A stretch of 64,000 nucleotides of DNA from an uncultured Chloroflexia bacterium (GCA_963712735.1 CAVQIZ010000007.1:282870-346869); one strand, 5' to 3'; shown: positions 10,681 to 64,000, counted from the first letter of the stretch. Numbers and translations: made by a program. Notes: generated by a model from the letters alone, not told the origin.

Positions 10681-11289
10681 CTACGCGCCGTTCCCGGAGG
10701 CCTTCTCGTGGACCTGCTGGCGCAGGCGCCACTCGGAGGCGAGGATGCCCATGGTCAGCTCGTCCCAGCGTCCCCCGTCGCGCACGATGGCCTCGCGGTG
10801 CCGCCCCTCGAGCGTGAAACCGGCCTTCTCGTAGCTGCGGATGGCGCGCGAGTTGAAGCCGAACACCGAGAGGGCCACGCGATGCAGGCCGATGCGTTCG
10901 AACGCCAGCCACAGCATCAGCTCGGTCGCCTCGGTGCCGTAGCCCGCACCCCAGGTATCGGCCTCGCCGAGGCTGATGTGGAAGAGCGTGGAGCCGTTGT
11001 CGGCGTCCAGGTTGCTGAAGGTGGTGGAGCCGATGAGGCGCCCGCTCTGGTTGATGACGATGGCGTAGGCGACCTGCTCGGGTGACAGCAGGCGGCCGTG
11101 GAAGAAGCGGTCGATCTCGTCGACGCTCATCGGCCGCTGGGAGTAGCGCGTGAGCCGCCCCAGCTCGGGATCGCGGTACCAGCGCCGCACGTCGGCCAGG
11201 TCGTCGGGGTGATGATGGCGCAGCAGCACGCGTGAGCCACGGATGGTGGCGGGATGCCAGACCTGCCGCTGCTGCTCGACCGAGACCAT
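10681..11289 (-). CDS. GNAT family N-acetyltransferase
   Basis: Only the last 202 codons of the 554-aa ORF 10681-12345 look real (MVSVEQQ...). Acetyl-CoA motif RIGLHRVALSVFGFNSRAIRSYEKAGF. The upstream part of that ORF is the antisense shadow of the ligase gene. Confidence 0.85.
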   Translation of the reverse strand: MVSVEQQRQVWHPATIRGSRVLLRHHHPDDLADVRRWYRDPELGRLTRYSQRPMSVDEIDRFFHGRLLSPEQVAYAIVINQSGRLIGSTTFSNLDADNGSTLFHISLGEADTWGAGYGTEATELMLWLAFERIGLHRVALSVFGFNSRAIRSYEKAGFTLEGRHREAIVRDGGRWDELTMGILASEWRLRQQVHEKASGNGA

Positions 11290-11352
11290 GGCCAGCGATG
11301 CTAGCGTAACGGCCGACGACGAGTCCCCGGCCAGCGGCAGCAAGGTAGATCG

Positions 11353-13104
11353 ATGAACGCGCCAGCCACCGGCTCGATGACGCGCTGGGCCCAGACGGCC
11401 GAGCGCATCCGGGCCACGCGCAAGACCTCCGAGAAGAGCGCCATCGTCGCCGAGTACCTGCGCTCGCTCGCGGGCGACGACCTCGCCATCGCTGCTGTCT
11501 TCCTCAGCGGTCGTGCCTTCCCCGAACGCGACCAGCGCACGGCAGGTCTGGGCTGGGCGGCCATCTCCGCGGTCGTGCGTGAGCTGGCCGCCGCTGACGA
11601 GGACGCGATGCGGCGAGCCTACGACCGCTCGTCGGACCTGGGCATGGCCGTGGAGGAGCTGCTGACGGAGGCCGGCCACCAGCCCACCGGTCCCGCCCTT
11701 GCCCTGTGCGACGTCGCCAGCGGCTACCAGTCGCTGGCGGCCGCGGCCGGTCGCGCCGCCAAGGCGGATGTCTTCGGCGGCCTGCTGCGTCGCGCAGACC
11801 CGCTTGTCGCGCGCTACGTCACTGCCATCCTCGGTGGCGAGCTGCGCATCGGCCTGCGCGAGGGCCACCTGGAGAAGGGCATCGCCGCGGCGTTCGGGCG
11901 GGAGGTCGCCGCGGTGCAGTGGGCGGGCATGCTCACCGGTGACATCGGCCGGACCGCGGTGCTGGCCCGCGACGACGCGCTCGCCAGCGCCCGCCTGGCC
12001 CTGTTCCATCCGCTCAAGTCGATGCTGGCCTCGCCGGTGGCCGACGAGGCGGCGGCGCTGGCCCGCCTCAGCCCGCCGGTGTGGGTGGAGGACAAGTACG
12101 ACGGCATCCGTGCCCAGCTCCACAAGCAGGCCGGCGAGGTGCGCCTCTACAGCCGTGACCTCAACGACGTCAGCGGCCAGTTCCCCGAGATCGATCGAGG
12201 CTGCCGCCGGGCTGCCCTGGGACGGCATCCTCGACGGTGAGATCCTGGCCTGGCGCGATGGACTGGTGCTGCCCTTCCTGGCGCTGCAGTCGCGCCTCGG
12301 CCGCAAGAAGCCGTCGGCTGCCATCCGCGCCGAGGTGCCCGTCATCTACGTCGCCTTCGACGTGCTTGCCGCAGGCGGGGACGGCCGGCCGCCCGAGCCA
12401 TTGCTGCGCCAGCCCCTGCGGGAGCGCCGTCGACATCTCGAGACGTTCGACCTCGCACGCACGCCGGGCTTCGGGCTGGCCGCGCTCGTGGACGCGGCGG
12501 ACGCCGCTGAGCTCGAGCGCATCTTCGACGCCGCCCAGCAGCGAGGCAACGAGGGCCTGATGCTGAAGGACCCCGAGTCCACCTACGCGCCTGGCCGGCG
12601 CGGCTATGCCTGGCTGAAGCTGAAGAAGGCGTTGACCACGCTCGACTGCGTCGTCGTCGGCGTGGAGGTCGGCCACGGCCGCCGTCACGGCGTGCTCTCG
12701 GACTACACCTTCGCGGTGCTGGACGACCGGCCCGCAGCTGCCGATGGCGCGCTGGTGCACGATCGGCAAGGCCTACAGCGGTCTGACCGATGTCGAGATC
12801 GCCGCAGATGACGCGCTGGTTCGAGGCGCACACCATCAGCCGCCACGGGCGCTACCGGGTGGTGGAGCCCCGCGTCGTGGTGGAGATCGCCTTCGACGTG
12901 GTGCAGGCGTCGAAGCGGCACGCGTCGGGGTTCGCCCTGCGGTTCCCTCGCATCGTGCGCATCCGCCACGACAAGGATCCCGCCGGCATCGACCGCTGGA
13001 GCACGGTGGCTGCGCTGCATGCGCACCTGTCGGTGGCCGGTCGCCATGGCGTGCTCACCGCCGGCCGGCTGGCGCCGACGGAGCCGGCTGCGCCTGAGCG
13101 ATGA
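11353..13104 (+). pseudogene. ATP-dependent DNA ligase (LigB/LigC type), three frame breaks
   Basis: The pieces in frames 1, 2, 0, 1 join cleanly. Adenylation motif I EDKYDGIRAQ, then EGLMLKDPESTY, WLKLKKA, TIGKAYSGLTDVEI, and the OB-domain tail RFPRIVRIRHDKD. Each break (about 12193, 12757, 12805) is removed by deleting one base. Confidence 0.85.
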
Positions 13105-47834: not shown

Positions 47835-49165
47835 CTAGACCGCGGGCGGCCCCTCGAGGCGGCGACCGCGCACCCAGGCGGCGCGCACCATGCCCGGCCG
47901 CTCACGGAAGATGAGCCGGCTGGCGACTTCCTCGTGGTCACGGCAGGGCTCGGCCTCCGGCGGGCGTCCCAGCTCGGGGTCGACGGCGATGAGGTCGGCT
48001 TCCTTGCCCACTTCCAGCGAACCGATGACGTCGTCGAGGCCGAGCGCCTGTGCGCCGCCGAGCGTGCCCAGTCGCAGCCACTCCAGCGGCCCCGGCAGCG
48101 CCGCCTCGTCGCCGACGACCGTGGCGCGAGCGTTGTGGACGAAGAAGCCCAGGCGCATCTGCGTGATCACCGACAGCTCCGGGGCGCCGGCCACGTCGGT
48201 GCCCAGGCCCGACGCGCAGGCCCTCGTCGAGGTAGCGCGCGATGGGCATCACGCCGCTGCGGATGAACATGTTGCTGACCGGGCAGTGGGCGATGGCCGA
48301 ATCCGTCTCCACCATGCGCGCCACCTCCCGGTCGGAGAGGTGGATGGCGTGGGCGAGGAGCGCCCTGCGCCCCAGCCCACCGGCGCGGTCGTAGACGTCG
48401 AGGTAGTCGGCGGCCTCGGGGAACTGCTCGCCGACCGTCGCGATCTCGAGCGCGTCCTCTGACAGGTGCGTCTGCCAGGTCGCGTCGTAGTGGGCTGCCA
48501 ACGACGCCGATTCACGCAGCATGTCAGCCGTGCAGGAGACGGCGAACCGCGGCGTGAAGGCGTAGCGCAGGCGTCCGTCGGCAGCACCGTGCCAGCGCTC
48601 GCACAGCTCCGCGGAGGCGCGCATGGCGTTCTCCAGGATGGCGCTGGGCGGAGTGACGATCGTCGTAGGTGACGCGGTCCATCAGGACGTTGCCGATGGT
48701 GGCGCGGATGCCGTGGTCCTCGGCCGCGCGGAAGCAGGCGTCAGTCGAATCGGGCCAGATGGCGGCGTAGGCGGCGAAGGTGGTGGTGCCGGCGGCGGCC
48801 ATGGCCCGGTACACCTGCGGCGCCAGTCGCTCGGCCGCGGCCACGTCGAAGGCGCGCTCGAGCGGGAAGACGTAGCGCTCCAGCCAGGCCAGCAGGTCCA
48901 TGCCGGCGCCGAGGCCCGCCGCCGGGACCTGCGGGATGTGCACGTGCGTGTCCACCAGGCCGGGCATCAGCACCAGCGGGCGCAGGTCGATGGCCGTCTC
49001 GGCCTCGCGAGGTGCGTCGGCAGCGGCGCGGACCGAGCGGATGCGACCCGACTCGTCCACCTCGATGACCCCGTCGGGCTGCCACAGCGTGGAGCCGTCA
49101 GCCAGGGGGCTCAGCAGTCGCGCACGCAGCGTGAAGGGCGGCTGGAGCGGGAAGGCCGTGGCCAC
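47835..49165 (-). pseudogene. guanine deaminase-like amidohydrolase, two frame breaks
   Basis: PGLVDTHVHIPQ, QTHLSED, IAHCPVSN, GLGTDVAGAPE, EVGKEADLIAVD. The pieces rejoin after deleting one base near 48662 and one G of a GGG run near 48208. Confidence 0.8.
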
Positions 49166-50328: not shown

Positions 50329-50745
50329 TCAGCGTGCGCCCGGGACGGACACGGCGATGACCTGAAGGCCGTCGATCCCGTTGAAGTCGCGGGGGTTGCA
50401 GGTATAGAGCGGCAAGCCGTTGGCGAGCGCGACGGCCGCGATCATGGCGTCGTAGGCCCGGGCCGACGTCTTGCGACCCGAACGACGTAGCCCGGCAGCG
50501 ACCTGGCCGAAGGCACGCGCGGCATCGGCATCGAACGGGAGCGGGTCGAAGTCGACCTCAGCGCGCTGGAGATGGGCCTGCCTCGTCGCGCGCTCTTCGT
50601 CGGTGCCCACGAGCGGACCGACGCTGAGCTCTGCGAGCGTGATGGCGCAGATCAGCGGGTACGTCGGCAGCTGCGCGACGTCGCGGATGCGGTCGAGCAT
50701 GATGACCGTGCTCGTATCGAGCAGGCCTCGCTCTGGCCGCGTCAC
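50329..50745 (-). CDS. vapC: type II toxin VapC (PIN-domain ribonuclease)
   Basis: 138 aa. LLDTSTVI (first acidic residue), AITLAELSVG, AYDAMIAAVALANGLPLYTCNPRDF. Confidence 0.85.
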   Translation of the reverse strand: MTRPERGLLDTSTVIMLDRIRDVAQLPTYPLICAITLAELSVGPLVGTDEERATRQAHLQRAEVDFDPLPFDADAARAFGQVAAGLRRSGRKTSARAYDAMIAAVALANGLPLYTCNPRDFNGIDGLQVIAVSVPGAR

Positions 50746-50978
50746 AGCGAGGGGTCGATGAGGCGGTCGATGTCCCGCCTCAGCGTCTCGGGGTCCATCG
50801 GCGGCAGCCGTTGCCAGCGCTCGATCAGGGATTCCGCGGACAGCGTGCGCTCGGGGACCGGCACCAGGCGGGCGACGGGCATCCCGTCGCGGGTGACTGT
50901 CAGGATCTCACCCGCCGTCACGCGCTCGATGACCTCACCGCCCTTGTTCCGCAGCTCGCGGATCGTCACATCAGCCAT
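50742..50978 (-). CDS. type II antitoxin (Phd/YefM-like VapB)
   Basis: 78 aa. MADVTIRELRNKGGEVIERV. The stop overlaps the vapC start by 4 nt. Confidence 0.75.
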   Translation of the reverse strand: MADVTIRELRNKGGEVIERVTAGEILTVTRDGMPVARLVPVPERTLSAESLIERWQRLPPMDPETLRRDIDRLIDPSL

Positions 50979-50995: not shown

Positions 50996-51117
50996 CGATG
51001 AGACATGCCACGCCCGATGACCATGGTTCGCGAGCATGCAGGGAACCTTTTCAGGCCTTGTGGGACGCAATAGGGTAAGAGCGCGGCGAGAAGCGTCGCG
51101 CCGAAGCGGTGGTCCAC

Positions 51118-51691
51118 ATGACACGAGAGCTCGTCCGGCGAGCGATCGAGGGGGATCACGACGCGTTTTCCAGCCTGGTGGACGCGTCGGTCGATCGCCT
51201 CTATTCAGTGGCCACACTCATCCTGCGCGATCCGGACCGTGCCCAGGACGCGGTACAGGAGGCGCTCATGTCCGCCTGGAAGGACGTGCGTGCACTGCGT
51301 GATCCCGACGCGTGGGATGCCTGGCTCCACCGCATCACGGTGTGGGCCTGCTACAAGGCGGCGAAGAAGGAGCGTCGGCGCAAGACGGTCGAGCTGAAGG
51401 TCGTTCCCGACCCCGAGCGCTCCGTCGCTCCCGACTCCGCCGCAGCTCTGGCGAGCCGCGACCTGATCGAGCGGCAGTTGAACGACCTGCCGATCGATCA
51501 CCGCGCGGTCATCGTCCTGCGCTTCTACCTCGACCTGCCTCTCGACGAGGTGGGCGACATCCTCGATATCCCCGTCGGGACCGTGAAGTCCCGGCTGCAT
51601 CGGGCCCTGGCCTCGCTCCGCGAGTCGATGGCCGAGACCCGTCTGAACCGACAACCCCCCGGTCGGCGCCCTGAAGGACGGCACGGCATGA
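51118..51691 (+). pseudogene. ECF (sigma-70 family) RNA polymerase sigma factor, frame break at the C-terminus
   Basis: Region 2 AQDAVQEALMSAWKDVRALRDPDAWDAWLHRI. Region 4 LPIDHRAVIVLRFYLDLPLDEVGDILDIPVGTVKSRLHRA. As written it fuses to the next gene. The +1 frame, open only from 51647, ends in a TGA overlapping the next ATG. Confidence 0.85.
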
Positions 51692-53048
51692 ACGACGACG
51701 CTCGCTTCGAGCGACTCTTCGCTGAGGGCCTGCACGATATCGCGCCACTGCGCGCGCCCGACCGGCTCCGCACCCAGGTCAAGGCCGAGACCAGCAGGGT
51801 GCATCCGCGCCCACGCTGGCTCGCGCTCATCAAGGAGCCCCCTATGCGAACCAACTCCCGACTCGCCGTCGGTTCGCCGACGGCACGAGTGGCGGCCATC
51901 ATGGTCGCGACCCTGCTGGCGACGCTGCTCGTCGTCAGCGCCAGCATCGCCGGAGCACGTATCCTCGCCGCCGACGGCCCCATCGTCGTCGACCAGACCG
52001 GCAACGGCACCTACACCACCATCACCGAGGCCGTCGACGCTGCCGTCGACGGCGACGAGATCCTCGTCCAGCCCGGTGTCTACATCGAGGCCGTGGTCAT
52101 CGACAAGGACATCACGCTACGCGGCGATGGACCCGTCGAGGAGATCATCATGACCGCGCCCGAGGATGGTCCGGAGGCGCTCCTGTGGGAAGTTCTCCAG
52201 CTACTACGACCCGTACGCCCTCCTGGTGTCGGGCGTGGATGCGACGATCTCTGGTCTGACCTTCACCGGCGTTGGCTCGTCGGTGGTGCTCGATGGCGGA
52301 TCGCCCTCGCTGCACGATACGCTGTTCCAGGGCGTGGGAACGTCGTACACGGTGGTACATCACCCAGCGGGAGCTCGATCGTCGTCACCAACGGCGCCGC
52401 CGCGTCCGTCAGAGAAAACTCCATCCGCGATGGTGGCCCGATCGCCGTCTTCGGCGACGCGAATGCCACGATCGATGCGAACCGACTGTCTGCCGGTGCT
52501 CACATCTTTCTGGCCGACTACGGGCCTGCCACGGTCGTCAGCGGCAACGTCATCGAGGACACGATCATGTGGGCCATCGGCGCCTTCGACGGTGAGTCTG
52601 ATGCGCACCTGGTGATCAGGAACAACGAGATCACCAACCCCGGGCAGTCCGGCATCAACCTGAGTGCGGGCTCGGCGGATATCGTCGGCAACGAGATCCG
52701 GGGCGCTAGCACGGCGGCCATCATGACCGGTCTGGGGCTAGTCAGCATCACCGGCAACACCCTCATGGACAACCGTAACGCGATCGTCGACGCATCCGGC
52801 GAGGCGACGATCTCCGACAACGTCATCCGCGGCGGGAGAATCCGGTGTTGTCGTGTCTGGAGTCCAGGCGTTCAGCGGCAATGATGTCGAAGGCGTCGAG
52901 AGGGGCGGCATCGTCGATCGCCGTAGGCTCGCCGGTCCTCCGAGACAACCGCTCGTGCGGCAATGGCACGAATCTCATCGTCGCTGATACGGCCACGCCC
53001 GACATCGACGACAGCAACGAGATCTGCGAGGACGCGCCGGCCGACTAG
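51688..53048 (+). pseudogene. anti-sigma-like single-pass membrane protein with right-handed beta-helix (NosD/pectin-lyase-fold) ectodomain, about four frame breaks
   Basis: MNDDARFERLF..., TM VAAIMVATLLATLLVVSASIA, then YTTITEAVDAAVDGDEILVQPGVY and repeated I.GN.I motifs. Pieces in three frames rejoin near 52187, 52350, 52835 and 52900. The protein ends NRSCGNGTNLIVADTATPDIDDSNEICEDAPAD. Confidence 0.6.
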
Positions 53049-54816: not shown

Positions 54817-55188
54817 TCAGTCGTCAGCGGGGGAGGCGGCCAGTGGCTTGGAGGTCTGGGTCTCGCGTCCTGATGATGCCGTAACCGTCGGCCGCTGTGA
54901 TGGGTGCTTGCACCCGGGCCGGCGGAACTCGATCACCAGCTCGGTGCCGGTCGCCGCCGCGATGCGCTTGAGCATCTTCACGCTCGGGTTCTGCCGGCCG
55001 GATTCGAGCCGCGCCACCGTCGACTGTGGCATCCCGACCAGCTCACCGAACTCGGCCTGGGTCAGGTCGAGATCGGCTCGGAGACCTCCGATCTGGAGCG
55101 AGAGATCGCGAAACGGGAACTCGCGTTCCAGGGCCTCACGGAACCCGGGGTGGGCGAGCCACTCCTCCCGGATCTCTGTCCACCTCAT
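54817..55188 (-). CDS. XRE-family HTH antitoxin (HigA-like)
   Basis: LTQAEFGELVGMPQSTVARLESGRQNPSVKMLKRIA. The ATG at 55188 overlaps the toxin TGA (ATGA). Confidence 0.75.
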   Translation of the reverse strand: MRWTEIREEWLAHPGFREALEREFPFRDLSLQIGGLRADLDLTQAEFGELVGMPQSTVARLESGRQNPSVKMLKRIAAATGTELVIEFRRPGCKHPSQRPTVTASSGRETQTSKPLAASPADD

Positions 55189-55526
55189 CCTGTCGCCTCC
55201 AATCTCCGGCGCCATCGATGCACCGACCGCTCCGCTGCTCGCAGCCGTGACATCCTCAGCTTGCGGGACCTCTTGACCAGCACGGCCCCCACCGCGAGCA
55301 TCGTCGTGCCCGGAACAAGACAGAAGAACGCGCGCCGGTCCCCGTACCTGACCTCCCAGAGGTCGAGTGACTCAAGCTTCTTGGCGCTTGGTGCGCGTGT
55401 GCCCTGTCTTGATAACCGATCGAGCGCGTCGAAGAACCTCACCAGTTCACGCGGGTCGCGGCTTCGCTCGATCTGTTCGAGCACCTCGGGTGCCACGCGG
55501 ACGTCGTAGGCGTCGTGTCGGGTCAT
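55185..55526 (-). CDS. RelE/ParE-superfamily toxin (HigB / Gp49-like), toxin-first order
   Basis: 113 aa. LWEVRYGDRRAFFCLVPG pattern. Located upstream of the HTH antitoxin, as in HigBA modules. Confidence 0.65.
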   Translation of the reverse strand: MTRHDAYDVRVAPEVLEQIERSRDPRELVRFFDALDRLSRQGTRAPSAKKLESLDLWEVRYGDRRAFFCLVPGTTMLAVGAVLVKRSRKLRMSRLRAAERSVHRWRRRLEATG

Positions 55527-55565: not shown

Positions 55566-56222
55566 CTAGCTGACGGGAGTGCGCCTCTGCAGGGACCGGG
55601 GCACGCCGACGGCGTGGCTGAGGTGGCCGTCGACGAGGGCGAAGGGCGGCAGGTCGAGCGCGTTCATGTCGACCGCGGCGAACTCCTCGAGCAGGTAGCG
55701 GGCGAACTCGCGCTCCACGTCAAGGGGCAGGCAGATGAGGATGTCCCGCATCGGCGCCAGCACCAGGCCGTTGCGCTCGCCCAGCACGCGTACCAGCTCG
55801 TCGGGCAGCAGCAGGAGCGAGGAGGCCCAGCCCTCGCGCGATTGGAAGGCCACAGTGGGCACGTCGGCGATGCGCTCACAGATGAGAGCGAACTGCCTGC
55901 GGGCGGCGACACGGGCACGGACGTTGTCCAGCGCCTGCTCGAAGGCATCGTCGAGCGTGACGCCCCACGCCGCGAGCTGCTCGTGCGCCACGAAGAGCAT
56001 GGCGGGGCCGATGTCCAGGCCCAGGACGACGCGGATGCCGGGGCTGAACTCGCGTGCCGGCAGCTCCGCCGCATCGACCGGCAGGGGGCGACGGCGGGGG
56101 AGGGCCAGCCGCAGCCTGGGGGCCACGTCGGGCCAGGGGGCGGCGAGATCGACCGCTTCGATGGCGGCCACCACCTCCTCGACGGACGCGGTGGTGACGG
56201 CCGGTTCATCCATGCTGCTCAT
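55566..56222 (-). CDS. hypothetical protein
   Basis: 218-aa ORF with coding-like composition. No motif recognised. Confidence 0.45.
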   Translation of the reverse strand: MSSMDEPAVTTASVEEVVAAIEAVDLAAPWPDVAPRLRLALPRRRPLPVDAAELPAREFSPGIRVVLGLDIGPAMLFVAHEQLAAWGVTLDDAFEQALDNVRARVAARRQFALICERIADVPTVAFQSREGWASSLLLLPDELVRVLGERNGLVLAPMRDILICLPLDVEREFARYLLEEFAAVDMNALDLPPFALVDGHLSHAVGVPRSLQRRTPVS

Positions 56223-56321: not shown

Positions 56322-57476
56322 GTGAGGTCCATCCATGCCCCGACGGACGAGGTTCGACGCGCCTACGTCAACCAGTCGGCCATCAGCTACAGCTTCTACG
56401 TCGTGGGCGCCACGACCGCGTTCGTAGCGCTCGCGCTGGGCCTGTCCGATACGCAGGCGGGATTGCACTCGTCGGCGATGGCGGTGGGCATGATCGTGAC
56501 GGGCCTGGCGGGGGAGCGGTTCGACCGCAGGGTCGGTGTGCGCCGCGCGCACCTCGCCGCGATGGGCCTGCTGGTGGCTGCGCTGCTGGTGTTGGCCTGG
56601 GCGCCGACGTTGCCGGCCACGCTGGCGGCGTCGCTCGGGGTGGGCCTGGGAGCGGGGACGATGTTCGGCCATGTCAACCAGACGCTTGGCGCCGGCGGCG
56701 GTGCGCTCGCGAGGGTGCAGCTGACGCGGGGAGCGCTGGTGGCGAAGGCCTCGCAGCTGCTGGTGCCGCTGGCCATCGGGGTCGGCATCGCGGTCGGGCT
56801 CGAGTGGCGCTTCGTGGTGGTCCCGGTGCTCGCGTTCCTGGCGGTGCTCTTCGTCTGGACGCGGTCGGGCCGTGATGGGATGGCGGCGCATATCGATGCG
56901 GCGCGGTTGCCGTGGGCCTACTGGCTGCCGTGGATCCTGACGGTGTCGGTCATCGCCATGGAGTTCTTCGTCATCGTCTGGGGCGGCACGCTGGTGGAGC
57001 GCCAGACCGGCGTGTCCCTGGCCGATGCGACCCTGACGATCTCCGCCTTCATCGCCGGCATGATCGCGGGACGGGCAGTGATGTCAGTGCGGGCGATGGC
57101 GCGCTTCGATCCGATGCTCGTCATCCGCGTGGGCGTCATGCTGACCTTCGTGGCGCTGCTGCTGCCGTGGCTCTCCGGGAGCTACGAGCTGAGCGTGGGG
57201 GGACTGGCGGTGGCTGGCTTCGGCATCGGCATCCTCTATCCGCCGGCCGCCTCGATCGCGCTCGCCGCGGTGCCCAACCAGGCGGCGGCGGCTTCGTCGC
57301 GGCTGACCTTGGCGGCAGGCTTGGCCATCCTGGTGGCGCCGCTGATCCTGGGCGTCATCGCGGATATCTCCAGCATCTCCACGGCGTGGTTGCTGGTGCC
57401 CGGGGTGTGCGTCGCGGTGCTGCTACTGACGGTGCCGGTGGAACGGGCGAGACGCGGACGGGCGGTCGTCCTCTAG
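56322..57476 (+). CDS. MFS transporter
   Basis: 384 aa, about 12 TM helices, loop motif GERFDRRVGVRRA between TM2 and TM3. Confidence 0.85.
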   Translation: MRSIHAPTDEVRRAYVNQSAISYSFYVVGATTAFVALALGLSDTQAGLHSSAMAVGMIVTGLAGERFDRRVGVRRAHLAAMGLLVAALLVLAWAPTLPATLAASLGVGLGAGTMFGHVNQTLGAGGGALARVQLTRGALVAKASQLLVPLAIGVGIAVGLEWRFVVVPVLAFLAVLFVWTRSGRDGMAAHIDAARLPWAYWLPWILTVSVIAMEFFVIVWGGTLVERQTGVSLADATLTISAFIAGMIAGRAVMSVRAMARFDPMLVIRVGVMLTFVALLLPWLSGSYELSVGGLAVAGFGIGILYPPAASIALAAVPNQAAAASSRLTLAAGLAILVAPLILGVIADISSISTAWLLVPGVCVAVLLLTVPVERARRGRAVVL

Positions 57477-57910
57477 CGCGCGTCGTCCAGCGTGGTCGAG
57501 ATCTCCGCCACGATGCCGCCGAGTCGGTCGCGGATGTCACACTCCCAGACCTCGAAGACCCGCCAGTCGGCCTCCTCCAGCTGACGCCTCTTGCGGGCGT
57601 CCCGTTCCCGATTGAGCTCGAACTTGCGCGCCCAGAACTCGGGGTTGGACTTGGGCAGGTTCGGGTGGCAGCGCGGGCAGTGGTGCCAGTAGCAACCGTG
57701 CACGAAGATGGCCACATGGCGACCGGGGTACGAGATGTCCGGCCGACCCGGCGCTCGCTTCCAGTTCAGCCGATACCCGGGGTGGCCCGCCGCCCGTAGC
57801 GCGTGCCGAAGCGTTCGCTCAGGCTTGGTGTTCTTGGCCCGGTTGGCCTGCATGACGGCCCGAACGGCTTGCGACGAGGGTGGTGGGTTGGGTAGTTGCA
57901 GACCGGGCAT
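57473..57910 (-). CDS. vsr: very-short-patch repair endonuclease
   Basis: 145 aa from MPGLQ. NTKPERTLRHAL, RPDISYPGRHVAIFVHGCYWHHCPRC, WRVFEVWEC. Confidence 0.92.
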   Translation of the reverse strand: MPGLQLPNPPPSSQAVRAVMQANRAKNTKPERTLRHALRAAGHPGYRLNWKRAPGRPDISYPGRHVAIFVHGCYWHHCPRCHPNLPKSNPEFWARKFELNRERDARKRRQLEEADWRVFEVWECDIRDRLGGIVAEISTTLDDAR

Positions 57911-57958
57911 GGCTCTGAGTATCGAGCAAGCGGCTCGTCGCATACTGGGACCGTGCGC

Positions 57959-58630
57959 ATGATCGTCGAGAGCCATCAGTACGCCGAGACCGTCCTGGAA
58001 GGGCAGTTTCGCGATGAATGGGAGGAGCTGCTGGACGTGATCGGCACGCTGGATGTGCCGTTGCGACCTGTCGGTCCCTATACACAAACTGGCCGCCCGA
58101 AGTCGCCTAAGCGCCAGGCGCGCGTCATCGGTGGGCGACGAGCCAGTGCGCTCATGCCGGTGGACCAAGGCGAGATGAACCGGCAGATCCGGCTGGCATT
58201 GTCGGGTCGAGGCTGGAACTCCGAGCCGTACATCCTCATCGACCGAGAAGGTCGACCGATCGACACACGGCTCCGAGGGGACTTCGAAAAGTCGGGCGTG
58301 TTCGTGGAGGTCGAGTTCGGCAACGTCGCCTCCTACTACCGGGACCTGTTCAAGTTCCACATCGCTGGCACGACCGGCGCGGCGAAGGTGGGCATCATCG
58401 TCGTGGCAACCGATGCGCTCGCGCGACTATTCGACCAAGGTCAGGCTCGGTTCGAGCAGGCTGTGGCGCTGCTCCCGTACATGCGCGCAGGCGTTCAGCT
58501 GCCGACCGCGATCATCGGGATCGATGTGAACGACTGGCAGCCGGTCCGCGATCGATACGAGGCCATGCGAGCGCTCGTGGAGGAGAACGGGGAGGCGTGC
58601 CACCCGTTCGCAGCGGTGGTAGCGAGCTAG
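57959..58630 (+). CDS. type II restriction endonuclease, BamHI/BglII-like fold (specificity unknown)
   Basis: 223 aa from MIVESHQY. Candidate catalytic block DFEKSGVFVEVEFGNVASYYRDLFKF (D-x8-E-x-E). Convergent with the m5C MTase, with a 4-nt overlap. Confidence 0.6.
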   Translation: MIVESHQYAETVLEGQFRDEWEELLDVIGTLDVPLRPVGPYTQTGRPKSPKRQARVIGGRRASALMPVDQGEMNRQIRLALSGRGWNSEPYILIDREGRPIDTRLRGDFEKSGVFVEVEFGNVASYYRDLFKFHIAGTTGAAKVGIIVVATDALARLFDQGQARFEQAVALLPYMRAGVQLPTAIIGIDVNDWQPVRDRYEAMRALVEENGEACHPFAAVVAS

Positions 58631-59907
58631 GAAGCGGCCTGGGACCGAACCTCGGACCGGGAAGGATCGCCCTGGTCGCGTATCTCGGCCATCAGCTCAG
58701 CACCGACGCGCTCGATGAGCCCGACCACGAGGGCGTTGCCCATCATGAATGCGCGCCGACCCTCGGGCATGCCGGTGTCGGTCCAGTCGTCGGGGAACCC
58801 GTTCAGGCGCTCAAGCTCTCGAGGAGTGAGACGGCGATAGCGCCCATCGGCGACCTGGATGAGGTGCTTGAAGCGCGATGGCGTGCGTCCGCCTTCGCCC
58901 GTCAGGATGGTCCTGGCCGGCCAGTCGGTCCGGTCGGGGTAGGGGATGGGGCCTTCGACATAGAAGTACGGCGTGCCCGAGCCCTTGTGGTATCGCTGCT
59001 CTCGCTTGGAGCCCTTCAGGTATATCCATCGCCCGAGCTCATCGGCCGGGATGAAGTACTGCTCGGGCACCTCATCGGCTGGCTCCAGGATGTCACCGAG
59101 CGTCAGGGACTCGCCGTCCCAGGCGGGCTCGAGATCCAGCGTCCAGACGCGTCGTTGTGACATGTAGCCGGCGTTGCGGAAGGGAGACACGCCCTTGGTC
59201 GCGCCGAACGCCTCCGATACGTCTGCTGGAGTCCCTTCGATGACGAACGTTGGCGACGAGGACAGCACCGGTCCCTCGACCACCGGCAGGGCACGGGCAA
59301 GTGGGCCGCCGTAGACCACATCGTTAGGGTCGCGCTCGACGGCACCGACATGGCGCCCTAGCAGCAGCACACGTCGGCGCTTCTGCGGGAAGCCATAGTC
59401 GGCGGCGTTGACGACTCGCCACTCGACCTCGTAGCCGAGGTTCGCGAGCGCCGCGAGCATCACCCCGAAATCGCGCCCACGCTGGGCCGTGGGGGACTTC
59501 AGCAGGCGATCGACGTTCTCCAGGAACAGGTATGGCGGCCGCTTCATCATCAGCAGCCGGTAGATCTCCCACCACAGCACGCCCTTCTTGCCCACGATGC
59601 CTGTGGCCTGGTTGAGCGTCTTGGCGACTGAGTAGTCCTGGCAGGGGAACCCACCGACCAGCAGCTCGTGATCGGGGATGAGGCGCGCCCCGGCCTCGGC
59701 CTCGTTCATCACCTCGTGGATGTCCTCGCACACGGCGCCATCGGGCCCGAAGCGCTGGACGTAGCAGTCGTACGCGTGCTGGGTCTTGGTGCTGGGTTCC
59801 CACTGGTTCGCCCAGACCGTTCGCCAACCGGAACGTTCGAGCCCGATGCGGAAGCCACCGACACCAGCGAATAGCTCGACGACGCGGGGCCCGGATGCCT
59901 TGCTCAC
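58627..59907 (-). CDS. DNA (cytosine-5)-methyltransferase
   Basis: Motif I ELFAGVGGF, motif IV GGFPCQDYS, motif VI LFLENV, motif VIII FPQKRRRVLLLG, motif X MGNALVVGL. GTG at 59907 with GGAGG 11 nt upstream. The longer ORF to 59988 would overlap the upstream gene. Confidence 0.92.
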   Translation of the reverse strand: MSKASGPRVVELFAGVGGFRIGLERSGWRTVWANQWEPSTKTQHAYDCYVQRFGPDGAVCEDIHEVMNEAEAGARLIPDHELLVGGFPCQDYSVAKTLNQATGIVGKKGVLWWEIYRLLMMKRPPYLFLENVDRLLKSPTAQRGRDFGVMLAALANLGYEVEWRVVNAADYGFPQKRRRVLLLGRHVGAVERDPNDVVYGGPLARALPVVEGPVLSSSPTFVIEGTPADVSEAFGATKGVSPFRNAGYMSQRRVWTLDLEPAWDGESLTLGDILEPADEVPEQYFIPADELGRWIYLKGSKREQRYHKGSGTPYFYVEGPIPYPDRTDWPARTILTGEGGRTPSRFKHLIQVADGRYRRLTPRELERLNGFPDDWTDTGMPEGRRAFMMGNALVVGLIERVGAELMAEIRDQGDPSRSEVRSQAAS

Positions 59908-59926
59908 CGGTTCAAGACCTCCGTCG

Positions 59927-60796
59927 TCACTGTGGCAGCCCAAGGAACACGCTGGGTTCGAGTCGAGCGGCTTCGTCCATCGCGCCATCGAGGATGTAGA
60001 TGCGGGGGTCTCGTGCGAAGCCGTGCACGCGGTACAGCGAGTACGAGTCGCGGTGCGTCTGAGAGACCTCTACCTCCCACCTCGTGATACAGAACGGGGT
60101 CAGCGGCCCGTAGTTGGTCGTCTTGACCTCGATCAGCCGCTGTGCGCCCGACTCGGTGAAGCTGAGGATGTCGTATCCGGCTCCGTCTCCATCGTCGCGC
60201 GCGACCCAGCGCACCAGATTCGCTAGGTCCGGCCGCCCTGCCCTTGAGAGCTGCTCCCTCTCGAGCTCCGTCACCCATTCCTCTCCCGCCGTGCCGAGCT
60301 CGTGTCGCCGGAGATCGCGAATGGCGTCATGCGCGGTTCCCGTGATCGAAACGGAGGTGCGGCGGCCCCGACTCTGGGTGGAAACGCTCGGCGGCGGCAC
60401 AAGGACATCCGACGTCGAGCGGGGGAGGCCCTGTGCGCCGACGACCGGAGCCTCGCCGAACTGGGCGACGGCCTCGTTGATTCGTTCCCGCGGGTTCGCG
60501 CGGCCGACCACGGCGTCCCGTAGCGAGCTCTGGTAGTGCGCCATCGGTTTGTATCCGTCGATCCACGGCAATCCCAACTCAGCTCGGATGGCCGAGATGT
60601 TCTGAAGCTTCAGCTCGACCGCGCCCCGTGTTCGCGCAGGCATGAGCCTCATCAGGTCGCTGACTACATCGGACTTCGTGTAGCGCACGCCGCGGAGTTC
60701 CTTGCGGAGCATGTCTTCGTACGCGGCAACCGTCGCCTCGATCTCAAGGTTGGTCCACGCCGCCCCACGTGTTCCCTGGAGTCGTTGCTCGGTCAT
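59927..60796 (-). CDS. DUF3883-type PD-(D/E)xK nuclease-fold protein with uncharacterised N-terminal domain
   Basis: C-terminus GAGYDILSFTESGAQRLIEVKTTNYGPLTPFCITRWEVEVS (D ... E-V-K). N-terminus WTNLEIEATVAAYEDMLRKEL ... RTRGAVELKLQNISAIRAELGLPWIDGYKPMAHYQ. Start taken at MTEQRLQ. Confidence 0.65.
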   Translation of the reverse strand: MTEQRLQGTRGAAWTNLEIEATVAAYEDMLRKELRGVRYTKSDVVSDLMRLMPARTRGAVELKLQNISAIRAELGLPWIDGYKPMAHYQSSLRDAVVGRANPRERINEAVAQFGEAPVVGAQGLPRSTSDVLVPPPSVSTQSRGRRTSVSITGTAHDAIRDLRRHELGTAGEEWVTELEREQLSRAGRPDLANLVRWVARDDGDGAGYDILSFTESGAQRLIEVKTTNYGPLTPFCITRWEVEVSQTHRDSYSLYRVHGFARDPRIYILDGAMDEAARLEPSVFLGLPQ

Positions 60797-60830
60797 CTGC
60801 GCATCGTCGCCATTCTCGCGTATCGCGAGA

Positions 60831-63800
60831 CTACCCGGCACCCACCTGCTCATCGGCCACCTCGCTCAGCCGGCAGAGCGCGTTGGCCAGCAGCATCTGC
60901 CGTGGCGAGCGGGCCTGGACGCGGATGAGCTCCGGTGAGGCCACCACCAGCGTCAGGCAGCGCGCACGCGACGTGGCCACGTTGAGTCGGTTGAGCGAGT
61001 AGAGGAACTCCATCCCGCGCGGCGCATCCTCCGGCCGCGACGTGGCCATCGAGTAGATCGACACCGGCGCCTGCTGGCCCTGGAACTTGTCCACCGTGCC
61101 CACCGGCACCCGCGCGCAGGCTTCGCCGCGCTTCCGCAGCTCCGTCCCGATGAGCGTCCGCTGCGCGTTGTAGGGCGTGATGACGAGGATGTCATCCGGC
61201 CGGATCGCCGCCTTCGCCAGCTCGCGGTCCAGCCATGTCGCGCGACCATCGAGCAGCGCACACACGAGGTCGGCGATGACCCGCGCCTCCTCGATGGAGC
61301 GGTTGTCATTGCGCGCATCCGCGTGATCGACGGCGATGAAGCGGATGCCCTCGCCGTCGGCCAGACCCGCGCCGGACAGCGCCTGCTGCTCGTTGCCGCT
61401 CTCCGGCAGCAGCGCGCTCTCGTAGAAGACCTCAGAGGTGTAGCTGCAGATGTCAGGGTGGAGCCGCCAGGTCTTGTCCATGAAGAGGCCCAGCGTCGGC
61501 GGCATGACCGCGGTGTCCCGACCCAGCAGGTGTGCCAGCGCGCTCCGTTCCGCACCGACCGGGTGCGAGCCCTTCAAGGGCTGGTCGAGCTGCTGCGGGT
61601 CACCCAGCAGCACGATGGACTTGGCCACTGCGGACACCGCCAACGCGTTGGCCAGCGAGAACTGGCCGGCCTCGTCGATGAACAGCACATCGACGGCTTC
61701 GGTCGGGATCTTCGCACTCGACCAGAGCCAGGCCGTGCCGCCGATGACATCGGCTGCGCCGTCTGCCAGCACGGCCGCCACGTCCGCCGCCGACTCGATG
61801 CCCTCCGCATGGGCGCAGGTCAGCTCGCCCGAGTCGCCCGGCTTCTGGCGGATGACGACCTCACGATCGGCGAACGCGGGATGCTCGTCCTGCGCCGCCC
61901 AGACGTTGTCCAGCAGGTTGCCGATGACCTTGTGGCTGCCGGCGGTCACGCCCACGGTCTTGCCCTGGGCGACGAGGTCCAGGATCATGCGCCCGCCGAT
62001 CCAGGTCTTGCCGCTGCCGGGCGGTCCCTGGATGGCCAGGCACGTGCGATCGAGCCGCTTGACCAGTCGTCGTGCGGCGTCCGCGGCCGACTCGCCCTCT
62101 GTGCGCAGGGGCTGACCGTCCACGTGGCCATCGATGCGTGGCGTCCGGCACAGGACCAGGTCGCGGGCCGCGCGGTACGGTCCGTCGCCCGATCATGCCG
62201 TGGTCCACGACGGACTGGCCGATGTCCAGCAGCCGCTGCTCCTGCGCGGGGCAGGGCACCACGGTCTTGGCCACGAGTGCCCGTGGATGCTCGATGACCC
62301 GGCCGCGTGGGAAGCGCAGCACGATCTCGTGGCGGTCGAGGTCCGTCTCCACCACCGGCAGGTCCTTCAGGGTGGCGGGGTCGGTCGGCGCCTTGCCCAC
62401 GTCGAAGTCCTGCTCCGGGAAGCGGTAGCGATACGTCCGCCTGGCCTCGTCCTCGACACCGACCAGCTCCAGGCCGGCAAGCGGCTCGCGTGCCTCCAGC
62501 AGCTCCTCCTCGGTCGCCTCCAGCTGGCTGAACCAGCGCCACCAGTCGGGCTTCTGCTCGCGGCGATGCCAGCCAAGCAGGTTCGCCAGCAGCACCCGGC
62601 CTCGCTCATCGTGAGGTCCACTCGCGCTCGCTCTCGTCGACCGGGATGCCCGCGACCAGCGGCTCGGCCACCGCGCTCACGCGCTGCAGCCAGGCGGACA
62701 GGCCCTCCTCCGCCTCGCCGTCGCGAACCTGCGGCCGCGGCAGCTCGAAGCCCAGCGTGGAGGCCAGCACGCCGCGCTGCTCCTCCAGCCAGCGATGCAG
62801 CTCCAGCGTGGAGACCACGTCATCACGGTTGTAGGCGGTGATCTGGTCGAGGATCTCCTCGCCCACGCCGCCGTGACCGCCGAGCTGCAGCCAGTGCTCG
62901 AACTCGACGATGGACGAGCCCGCATCACGCAGCTCGATGTCGCGACGGAACCCGTAGAAGGGCTCCAGGCGCTTGATGGAGTAGCTCTCCACCGAGGCGC
63001 GCAGGCCCTGCCGCACGACCCGGTAGAGGTCCACCAGCACGTCGCCGCGGAACAGGCGGTCCACCTCGTCCTGGCGGGTGTTGTAGCGGCCCATGAGCTT
63101 GCCCAGGTGGCTGGGCTCGTACGGCGCGTAGTGGTAGACGTGGAGCGTCGGGATCCGCGTCGAGGGCCTCGATGATGGTGTCGATGGTGCGTTCGAAGGC
63201 GGCCTTCTCCGCGGCCTCGGTTACCCGTCCCTCCCGTCGCGGCTCCAGAAGGCGTGGAAGCGTGGATCGCCGTTGGCATCGCGCTCACCCGGCTGCAGCA
63301 GGCCGAAGAGGTAGTCGATGCCGTCCTCGCCGGCGAACGGATCGCCCTCCAGGTCGAGGTAGAGGTCCCCGGGGCTGGGTGCCGGCAGCGCCAGCAGTCC
63401 CTTGGTCGTATCGAGCTCGTCGTCCGGCGTGCGGTGCGGCTCCAGCAGCTCGTGGATGTAGCGGCGCTCGTCCTCACCCTGGACCTGGATGCGCGCCTGC
63501 TCGCGGACGCGCTCCAGCGCCTCCGGGCTGGTGCCCTCCAGCCGTGGCTGTAGCGGCAGCTCCACGACCGCCAGCGAGCGGCGCGTGCCGATATCGCGCT
63601 CGACCAGCGCGGCCCGGGTGCGCGCGCTGATGTTGGCCACCAGCGAGAGGTGGTCGTCTGCCCGGCGTCGCTTGCTGCAGATCTCATCCCAGCTGCAGAC
63701 GCCACAGTGTTCCGTGGGCTCCGGGTAGGACGGCGGCGGGGGAGGGTAGATCGCTCGGCAGTGGGCGCCCGACGGCATCGAGGAAGCGGGCCTGCACCGA

Positions 63801-64000
63801 GCGGAAGTAGGCCCGGAAATCGGCCGTGCGGAAGCCCTGGGTCTCCCTGTCCTTTCCCCCGAGGGCCACGTACATGCGCTCGGGATAGCGGCCCTGGATG
63901 GCCGCGAGCAGCTCGTTGTAGACGCAGATCTGCAGCAGCGCGGAGGCCTTGACCTTGTGCGCGAGCTTGGTGTCCGCGACCTCGTACGACCAGCCCAGCG
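60831..64000 (-). pseudogene. TM0106-type RecB-like nuclease + RNase H-like exonuclease + SF1 (DNA2/NAM7-like) helicase; 5' end outside the window, about five frame breaks
   Basis: Read from 64000 downward: EVADTKLAHKVKASALLQICVYNELL (nuclease core), HCGVCSWDEIC (Cys cluster), DLYLDLEGDPF...IDYLFG and HVYHYAPYEPSHL (exonuclease), then GPPGSGKTW, LFIDEAGQ, LLGDPQQL, VDKFQGQQAPV, RLNVATSRAR (helicase). Breaks lie near 63769, 63225, 63150, 62615 and 62189. Confidence 0.85.

Follow-up and report, generated by a model that had tools for sequence, protein, structure and literature searches.

A helicase-nuclease, a PDC-S36 nuclease and a type II restriction-modification system, probably independent neighbours in a variable chromosomal slot of a Chloroflexia bacterium

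We analysed a stretch of 64,000 nucleotides (nt) from an uncultured Chloroflexia bacterium (GCA_963712735.1 CAVQIZ010000007.1:282870-346869), hereafter the window, whose end carries on the minus strand genes for a helicase-nuclease, a DUF3883 nuclease and a cytosine-5 DNA methyltransferase (MTase). A reading made from the sequence alone had taken the three for one unnamed defence module. We favour, with a probability of about 0.6, three independent units that are neighbours within a variable slot of the chromosome and do not form one system. The helicase-nuclease is a syntenic chromosomal gene bordering the slot, the DUF3883 protein is, as judged from its relatives, most likely a modification-dependent (type IV-like) nuclease that acts alone, and the MTase makes up an ordinary type II restriction-modification (R-M) system together with a convergent restriction endonuclease (REase) and the very-short-patch repair endonuclease Vsr. 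The pairing of helicase-nuclease and DUF3883 genes, on which the single module had been built, is tied to one syntenic locus of one lineage.

The window is GC-rich, and the names of the nearest homologues point to a Chloroflexota (Limnocylindria-like) genome as its most likely source. The layout first described holds. The three co-directional minus-strand genes follow one another in the order helicase-nuclease, DUF3883 gene, MTase, with gaps of 34 and 19 nt. The helicase frame stops with a TAG at 60831-60833, the DUF3883 open reading frame (ORF) extends from an ATG at 60796 to a TGA stop at 59927, and the GTG of the MTase at 59907 sits 9 nt past a GGAGG. The ATG at 60796 is consistent with the profile of the PADLOC family PDC-S36 and with the start of the orthologue in L083, one of the homologous loci used for comparison. 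The domain calls were also verified: pieces of AAA_11/AAA_12, RNase_H_2 and TIGR03491 in the helicase-nuclease, NOV_C/DUF3883 at 76 bits and DNA_methylase at 204 bits. The genes and domains are as follows, lengths being given in amino acids (aa).

60831..64000, minus strand: TM0106-family RecB-like nuclease with RNase_H_2 and superfamily 1 (SF1; AAA_11/AAA_12) helicase (TIGR03491 and AAA_11/AAA_12 pieces)
59927..60796, minus strand: DUF3883/NOV_C PD-(D/E)xK nuclease, 289 aa, member of PDC-S36 (PDC-S36, NOV_C)
60422-60796 (residues 1-125), minus strand: helical N-domain of the DUF3883 protein (AlphaFold model)
59930-60334 (residues ~155-289), minus strand: nuclease domain of the DUF3883 protein (NOV_C)
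58627..59907, minus strand: type II cytosine-5 DNA MTase, 426 aa from the GTG at 59907 (PF00145, TIGR00675, PADLOC MTase_II)
57959..58630, plus strand: type II REase of BglII/BamHI fold, 223 aa (PF09195 Endonuc-BglII)
57473..57853, minus strand: Vsr endonuclease, 126 aa (TIGR00632, PF03852)

The spacing of the helicase, DUF3883 and MTase genes suggests that they are co-transcribed; a scan of positions 57300-61200 for promoters and terminators found no sites and is uninformative on transcription units. The REase gene lies on the plus strand and converges on the MTase gene, their 3' ends overlapping by 4 nt. Because the REase gene stands between Vsr and the MTase on the opposite strand, Vsr is on a separate transcript from the MTase. 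The islet has a GC content of 65-67% versus 70-72% in its flanks, which fits acquisition.

Comparison with relatives shows a slot with fixed borders and exchangeable content. A left context of cNMP-binding, HypC, DUF6390, major facilitator superfamily (MFS) and helicase genes is common to L081, L083, L164, L165 and L168, and a right context of an MFS gene and a 218-aa gene is common to the same five loci and L001. The slot between them contains:

Window, L081 and L083: DUF3883 gene, MTase, BglII-like REase, Vsr
L168 and L001: the same set as in the window but with a MutH/Sau3AI-like REase
L164: a TM0106-like nuclease paralogue (613 aa) followed by a PLD enzyme from the PADLOC type IV methyl-directed class
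L165: the same TM0106-like paralogue, an AspBHI-like methyl-directed enzyme (E 1.9e-86), a 5-methylcytosine (m5C) MTase, a MutH-like REase, Vsr

Since relatives keep the helicase and the flanks while the DNA between them differs, the helicase is a chromosomal border gene in conserved synteny, and fixed flanks with variable content explain why it adjoins the DUF3883 gene in the window. In L165 the methyl-directed enzyme stands at the position that the DUF3883 gene takes in the window. In the more distant L166 and L167 the DUF3883 gene lies 0.3 kb and 4.2 kb downstream of the helicase, amid toxin-antitoxin and other genes, and L166 has a UDG-family gene where Vsr would be. A helicase gene that is syntenic in relatives and disrupted in the window is what the sequence-only reading had named as evidence against its own proposal. 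As an observation on the slot itself, the TM0106-like paralogue (L164 10555-12396, L165 10595-12410) lies directly 3' of the helicase, is Pfam-negative and is split into 465 and 152 aa in L165. By hhalign (probability 86.5%, E 4.5e-6) the 613-aa protein is distantly paralogous to the TM0106 nuclease/RNase_H_2 module and has no helicase part.

Co-occurrence beyond this lineage was counted from both sides, in 80 diverse genome loci with DUF3883 homologues of 35-60% identity from many phyla and in 80 metagenome loci with helicase homologues of 42-60% identity, 69 of which are informative as they extend at least 900 nt downstream. None of these 69 has a DUF3883 gene within 7 kb of the TM0106 helicase. 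Conversely, the helicase is absent from 76 of the 80 DUF3883 loci and present in four, two of them from the same lineage: it adjoins the DUF3883 gene in L001 and L002, both Chloroflexota; in L041 it is 2.3 kb off on the opposite strand, with an AAA_15/AAA_21 ATPase gene and a DUF3226 gene in between; and in L074 it lies 2.7 kb away. The two upstream families are not general neighbours across genomes. An m5C MTase and/or Vsr is found within 6 kb in 16/80 DUF3883 loci, in several at no more than 50 nt, and neither in the other 64. Other recurrent neighbours are a Z1-domain protein (7/80) and a PLD-helicase protein (6/80), no other cluster occurring in more than seven loci. The PDC-S36 protein thus appears, from these sequence neighbourhoods, to work without an obligate partner gene. 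We also noted in four Acidobacteriota loci (L025, L050, L055, L062; ~10850-11700) that the DUF3883 gene is followed by a cysteine-rich, Pfam-negative ORF of ~137-160 aa; Vsr comes next in three of the four, with no MTase nearby.

On the helicase side, no neighbour is conserved across 84 loci, and the sole recurrent one is a LigD-like gene with phosphoesterase/ligase motifs, 0.6-3.3 kb from the TM0106 helicase in six of them (L118, L125, L127, L145, L151, L156). Such a neighbour hints that the helicase family takes part in the repair of DNA ends.

The state of the helicase-nuclease gene bears on the same question. TM0106 nuclease-helicases number more than 7,400 homologues, nearly all of 1,170-1,200 aa and with RNase_H_2 and AAA_11/AAA_12, and the intact 1193-aa orthologue of L083 scores 224.7 bits with TIGR03491 (cut-off 97.45). 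The window covers codons ~133-1193 of the ~1190-codon gene, whose 5' end lies beyond it, and the pieces span TIGR03491 profile positions 109-179, 184-330 and 368-462. Family and domains are those first proposed for a product of at least 1,050 aa; the single product itself requires five frame corrections. DNA alignment places five single-base indels in the reading frame, at ~63750 (+1), ~63233 (-1), ~63146 (+1), ~62612 (+1) and ~62192 (+1), and tblastn with the 1193-aa L083 orthologue as query returns the window gene as four frame segments. L168 is an independent assembly, 95.8% identical across window positions 64000-58684 (helicase, DUF3883, MTase). The frameshift at ~63750 is common to the window and L168 and is real; the remaining four occur in the window alone and may be long-read consensus errors, from which they are not distinguishable. 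L168 has private +1/+2 insertions of its own in the genes of the helicase, of the MTase and of the DUF3883 protein, the last being otherwise 99.2% identical to that of the window. The helicase of L081 carries a CAG>TAG change (a single C>T) at codon 503 (L081 7935-7937, inside CTGCAGCTG), a nonsense codon that is an inactivation independent of the window frameshift. Because of the ~63750 frameshift common to two assemblies and of this nonsense codon, the helicase is dispensable in at least two sub-lineages. Decay of the whole gene was considered and rejected: four of the five frameshifts are private, similar indels occur elsewhere, and dN/dS (the ratio of nonsynonymous to synonymous substitution rates) is not raised on the window branch. 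The opposite view, that all the frameshifts are artefacts, was rejected as well, given the one common to two assemblies and the independent nonsense codon in L081.

We also observed that a GATC stands at three of seven located single-base indels (~63750, ~62192, ~48656), GATC spacing being ~182 nt. GATC being the probable core of the m5C site of the host, the coincidence could stem from base-calling errors that methylation induces in long-read data, or from chance; it was noticed post hoc and is too weak to use.

Comparison of the window, L081 and L083 yields dN/dS of 0.06-0.13 for the DUF3883, MTase, REase and Vsr genes (0.06-0.11 for DUF3883, 0.08 for the REase) and of 0.12-0.22 for the helicase pieces. 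All four cassette genes are under purifying selection, strong in the case of DUF3883, whose gene is maintained irrespective of helicase integrity. The DUF3883 gene also has a history of its own. Its synonymous divergence of 1.06-1.6 is far above that of its neighbours, its tree conflicts with theirs, the helicase included, and the window copy is 99.2% identical to that of L168, where the right flank is 85% identical, and 73% identical to that of L083. With its high divergence, conflicting tree and near-identity with L168 it behaves as a separately exchanged allele.

The DUF3883 protein, rightly singled out as a defence candidate, does not lack a name: it matches PDC-S36 of PADLOC over its full length (E 2.8e-86, 287.7 bits), residues 29-305 of the 308-aa ORF aligning to profile positions 3-277 of 280, and was thus already catalogued as a candidate system. 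We take the S series of PADLOC names to stand for single-gene candidates. PF13020 (NOV_C/DUF3883) gives 76.1 bits versus a gathering score of 22.1, and an NCBIfam scan found no model that covers the protein. A word-indexed search yields 964 homologues, and an identical protein is encoded in sequencing run ERR12037369. Among 103 sequences D209, E223 and T226-T227-N228 are invariant and K225 nearly so. The AlphaFold model (pLDDT 91) has a helical N-domain (~1-125), a linker and a PD-(D/E)xK domain built on an alpha-beta-beta-beta core; in the model the N-domain is all-helical, with no beta pseudobarrel. Fold searches at E<=0.001 gave no match for the full model in PDB and BFVD or for the N-domain alone in PDB. 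Weak matches are to generic PD-(D/E)xK nucleases (Cas4, MGME1, AdnAB, RecE) and to small helical DNA-binding domains. Searching the sequences of PDB with a profile likewise found nothing, and residues 1-155 have no Pfam match at E<=10.

At E<=0.001 the N-domain profile reaches 3,204 clusters of proteins grouped at 50% identity. Of the top 150 matches, 47 have the classic architecture of ~280 aa and 26 carry an additional N-terminal extension. Ten atypical matches were scanned against Pfam; one combines EVE, N-domain and DUF3883, one N-domain, EVE and HNH, and one has EVE followed by the N-domain. The N-domain is strongly conserved across phyla whereas the partner MTases vary. More than 1,100 plasmids, the majority from Enterobacteriaceae, also carry full-length homologues of the DUF3883 protein; as a separate observation, 1,217 plasmid records, mostly conjugative Enterobacteriaceae plasmids, have a homologue of the family. 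On the Klebsiella oxytoca IncFIB plasmid NZ_CP115681.1 (L169 7710-8846) a 378-aa homologue with 38% identity and an N-terminal extension has the aac(3)-IId region on one side and ISCfr1 on the other. By these records the family is carried along with a common resistance module.

A type IV-like activity of the DUF3883 protein is suggested by several features of its relatives. DUF3883 is the catalytic domain of YenY4I, a proven modification-dependent enzyme (Lutz et al. 2019, PMC6765204), and the N-domain is fused elsewhere to EVE and HNH; EVE-HNH and PUA-nuclease fusions are architectures that yielded modification-dependent restriction enzymes (PMC6765204). The presence of an m5C MTase or Vsr near 16 of the 80 loci and of a methyl-directed enzyme at the equivalent position in L165 point the same way. 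We infer modification dependence from these features.

The MTase matches PF00145 (204 bits), TIGR00675 (221 bits) and PADLOC MTase_II (476 bits), the REase matches PF09195 (50.6 bits, cut-off 26), its L081 and L083 orthologues matching PF02923 BamHI in addition, and Vsr matches TIGR00632 (114 bits versus a cut-off of 97.85) and PF03852, with 88.6% identity to its L081 orthologue. All three ORFs are intact, score above curated cut-offs and have dN/dS values of at most 0.13. The MTase, the convergent BglII-fold REase and Vsr are an ordinary type II system, as had been suspected at the outset. Homologues of the MTase stand beside MutH/Sau3AI-like REases in L168 (~95% nt identity) and in L001 and L165 (80% and 64% protein identity). 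Given these REases and the BglII/BamHI fold of the one in the window, the MTase probably forms m5C at a site with a GATC core. GATC is mildly under-represented, with 352 occurrences versus 476 expected. An exchange of the REase can be located between window positions 57911-58684 (BglII/BamHI fold, also in L081 and L083) and L168 13924-15355 (MutH/Sau3AI-like, likewise in L001 and L165).

Under the three-unit explanation, the m5C MTase would shield the DNA of the host, probably at sites with a GATC core. Incoming DNA without this methylation would be cleaved by the convergent BglII-fold REase, and T:G mismatches that arise when 5-methylcytosine is deaminated would be repaired by Vsr. The PDC-S36-family nuclease would act alone as a type IV-like restriction enzyme, its N-domain docking on foreign or modified DNA for the DUF3883 C-domain to cut. 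Its translational linkage with the MTase would arise solely from sharing a small operon. The TM0106 nuclease-helicase would be a lineage-conserved gene, probably a Dna2/AddAB-like DNA-end processor, that forms the left border of the slot and is in the process of loss in the sub-lineage of the window.

Several points weigh against this explanation. The sensor role of the N-domain is suggested solely by its fusion partners, the domain having no Pfam or significant fold match, and the protein of the window is without EVE, PUA or DUF3427. A 5mC-dependent nuclease beside an m5C MTase requires that their specificities do not overlap. A literature search for PDC-S36 found no paper on the family and no experiment or mechanism. 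Assembly errors may account for four of the five frameshifts in the helicase, so that the gene is perhaps less decayed than apparent; the sister assembly L168 has similar private indels in its DUF3883 and MTase genes, and other genes of the window are frameshifted too. The remaining points concern the association of the helicase and DUF3883 genes: they are co-directional and merely 13-34 nt apart in the window lineage (window, L081, L083, L168), they are no more than 4.3 kb apart in L001, L002, L166 and L167, which are more remote relatives, and a loose pair in two proteobacteria, L041 and L074, exceeds chance expectation.

This last association is what a two-gene machine driven by NTP would predict, in which the helicase translocates on or unwinds DNA, the DUF3883 protein senses and cuts, and the MTase operon is a bystander. 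The gene order of the window recurs with larger gaps in L001 and L002, the distance is 0.3-4.3 kb in L166 and L167 and within ~2.5 kb in the two proteobacteria, and coupling of some DUF3883 restriction enzymes to neighbouring NTPases or helicases has been proposed (Lutz et al., PMC6765204). We nonetheless find such a machine clearly unlikely. The close cases belong to the same syntenic locus of one lineage and are therefore not independent, the counts of the census (0/69 and 76/80) run counter to a functional pair, L164 and L165 retain the helicase without a DUF3883 gene, purifying selection on DUF3883 persists beside a frameshifted or nonsense helicase, and the two gene trees disagree. Very unlikely, too, is a modular restriction system in which the TM0106 nuclease-helicase is the constant motor and the downstream genes are exchangeable sensor or cutter modules, the slot then recording effector swapping and not a passive hotspot; its modules could be the DUF3883 nuclease in the window and, in relatives, the TM0106-like nuclease with the PLD enzyme or with the AspBHI-like methyl-directed enzyme.

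The DUF3883 protein could otherwise belong with the methylation genes, as a second REase restrained by the m5C MTase or by assisting repair of the Vsr type where cytosines are methylated or deaminated. In L081 and L083 the stop of the DUF3883 gene and the start of the MTase overlap (GTGA), DUF3883 genes precede unrelated m5C MTases by 16-78 nt in L017, L079, L167 and L001, an m5C MTase or Vsr is near a fifth of the loci sampled, and the UDG-family gene of L166 replaces Vsr. We hold this rather unlikely: neither an MTase nor Vsr is present within 6 kb in 64 of the 80 loci, a full REase/MTase pair already exists in the window, conservation of the N-domain across phyla beside differing MTases is unexpected for a sequence-specific cognate REase, and the fusions with EVE and HNH suggest modification-dependent enzymes. 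It is improbable to a greater degree that the protein has no part in defence and is a housekeeping or mobile-element nuclease (e.g. for recombination or plasmid maintenance) hitch-hiking in variable regions. The empty literature search on PDC-S36 would fit, as would the plasmid homologues, one of them inside an antibiotic-resistance region beside insertion sequence (IS) elements, and the many loci, most of those sampled, without a recognisable defence-typical neighbour. Its recurrent neighbours are however of restriction type (m5C MTase, Vsr, Z1-domain and PLD-helicase proteins, AAA_15/AAA_21 ATPase with DUF3226), the equivalent slot of relatives holds methyl-directed restriction enzymes, the N-domain is joined to EVE or HNH in other proteins, and deep allelic divergence with recent exchange is typical of defence genes.

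With the proposed three-gene system not present, there is nothing new to name. What remains of value is a lead on a large nuclease family, with 3,204 N-domain clusters, presence on more than 1,100 plasmids and about one locus in five accompanied by a cytosine MTase or Vsr. Should the family turn out to consist of type IV restriction enzymes, its helical N-domain would represent a new module for reading DNA or its modifications. The locus is also a clean natural case of REase swapping (BglII-fold versus MutH/Sau3AI-like) beside a near-unchanged MTase.

The surroundings agree with the accessory restriction or defence neighbourhood first suggested, including the two toxin-antitoxin pairs reported within 10 kb. 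The genes beyond Vsr are:

56322..57476, plus strand: MFS transporter, right boundary of the variable slot and outside the system (flank kept in relatives)
55566-56222: 218-aa gene beyond the right-hand MFS gene
54817-55526, minus strand: HTH_3/HTH_31 gene overlapping a 113-aa gene, toxin-antitoxin-like (kept in L081 and L083)
50332-50978, minus strand: Phd-type antitoxin and PIN toxin pair (kept in L081 and L083)

Further away, single-base insertions, one at ~48656 and one at ~48210, spread an amidohydrolase gene (47853-49087, minus strand) over three frames, whereas its L081 orthologue of 417 aa is intact. At 51094-53039 (plus strand) a sigma-70 gene and a beta-helix (anti-sigma-like) gene read as a single 591-aa ORF; the end of the beta-helix gene (52.77-52.93 kb) is spread across three frames compared with L083, by more frameshifts or by true divergence.

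Among known systems, Nhi/Hna and the Mokosh proteins MkoA/MkoC combine, like the helicase-nuclease of the window, a nuclease and an SF1 helicase in one chain. PADLOC matches of the window protein are partial and limited to the helicase core (MkoA, MkoC, DpdJ, Hhe); with Mokosh only the C-terminal helicase region is matched, e.g. MkoA profile positions 891-1086 of 1112. No PADLOC model named Nhi or Hna matched, it being unconfirmed whether the library holds such models. Unlike these systems, the window-type helicase has a context of conserved synteny and not of a mobile island. Within its own TM0106 family (TIGR03491), the L083 orthologue lies above the cut-off and has the helicase fusion, whereas the window copy is frameshifted five times and cut by the window edge; a literature search found no paper using the family name TM0106 in a biological context. 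The R-M genes resemble type II m5C systems with Vsr (Sau3AI/dcm-vsr type) in having an m5C MTase, a convergent REase and Vsr, but their REase has the BglII/BamHI fold and those of close relatives are MutH/Sau3AI-like. PDC-S36 has the same length and domain order as the DUF3883 protein, usually with no conserved partner, and there is no sequence-level difference between the two. The closest characterised enzymes are those of the YenY4I/McaZI group (PUA-DUF3427-DUF3883 and DUF3427-DUF3883; PMC6765204), which share the C-terminal DUF3883 PD-(D/E)xK domain with the window protein. The DUF3427-DUF3883 enzymes adjoin GATC-specific C5 MTases with Sau3AI/MutH-like REases (PMC6765204), and both this group and the family of the window are found alone or beside a GATC-type C5 MTase with a GATC-family REase and tend to lie in defence islands. 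The window protein differs in being without DUF3427 and PUA and in carrying, at the sensor position, its helical domain of ~125 residues.

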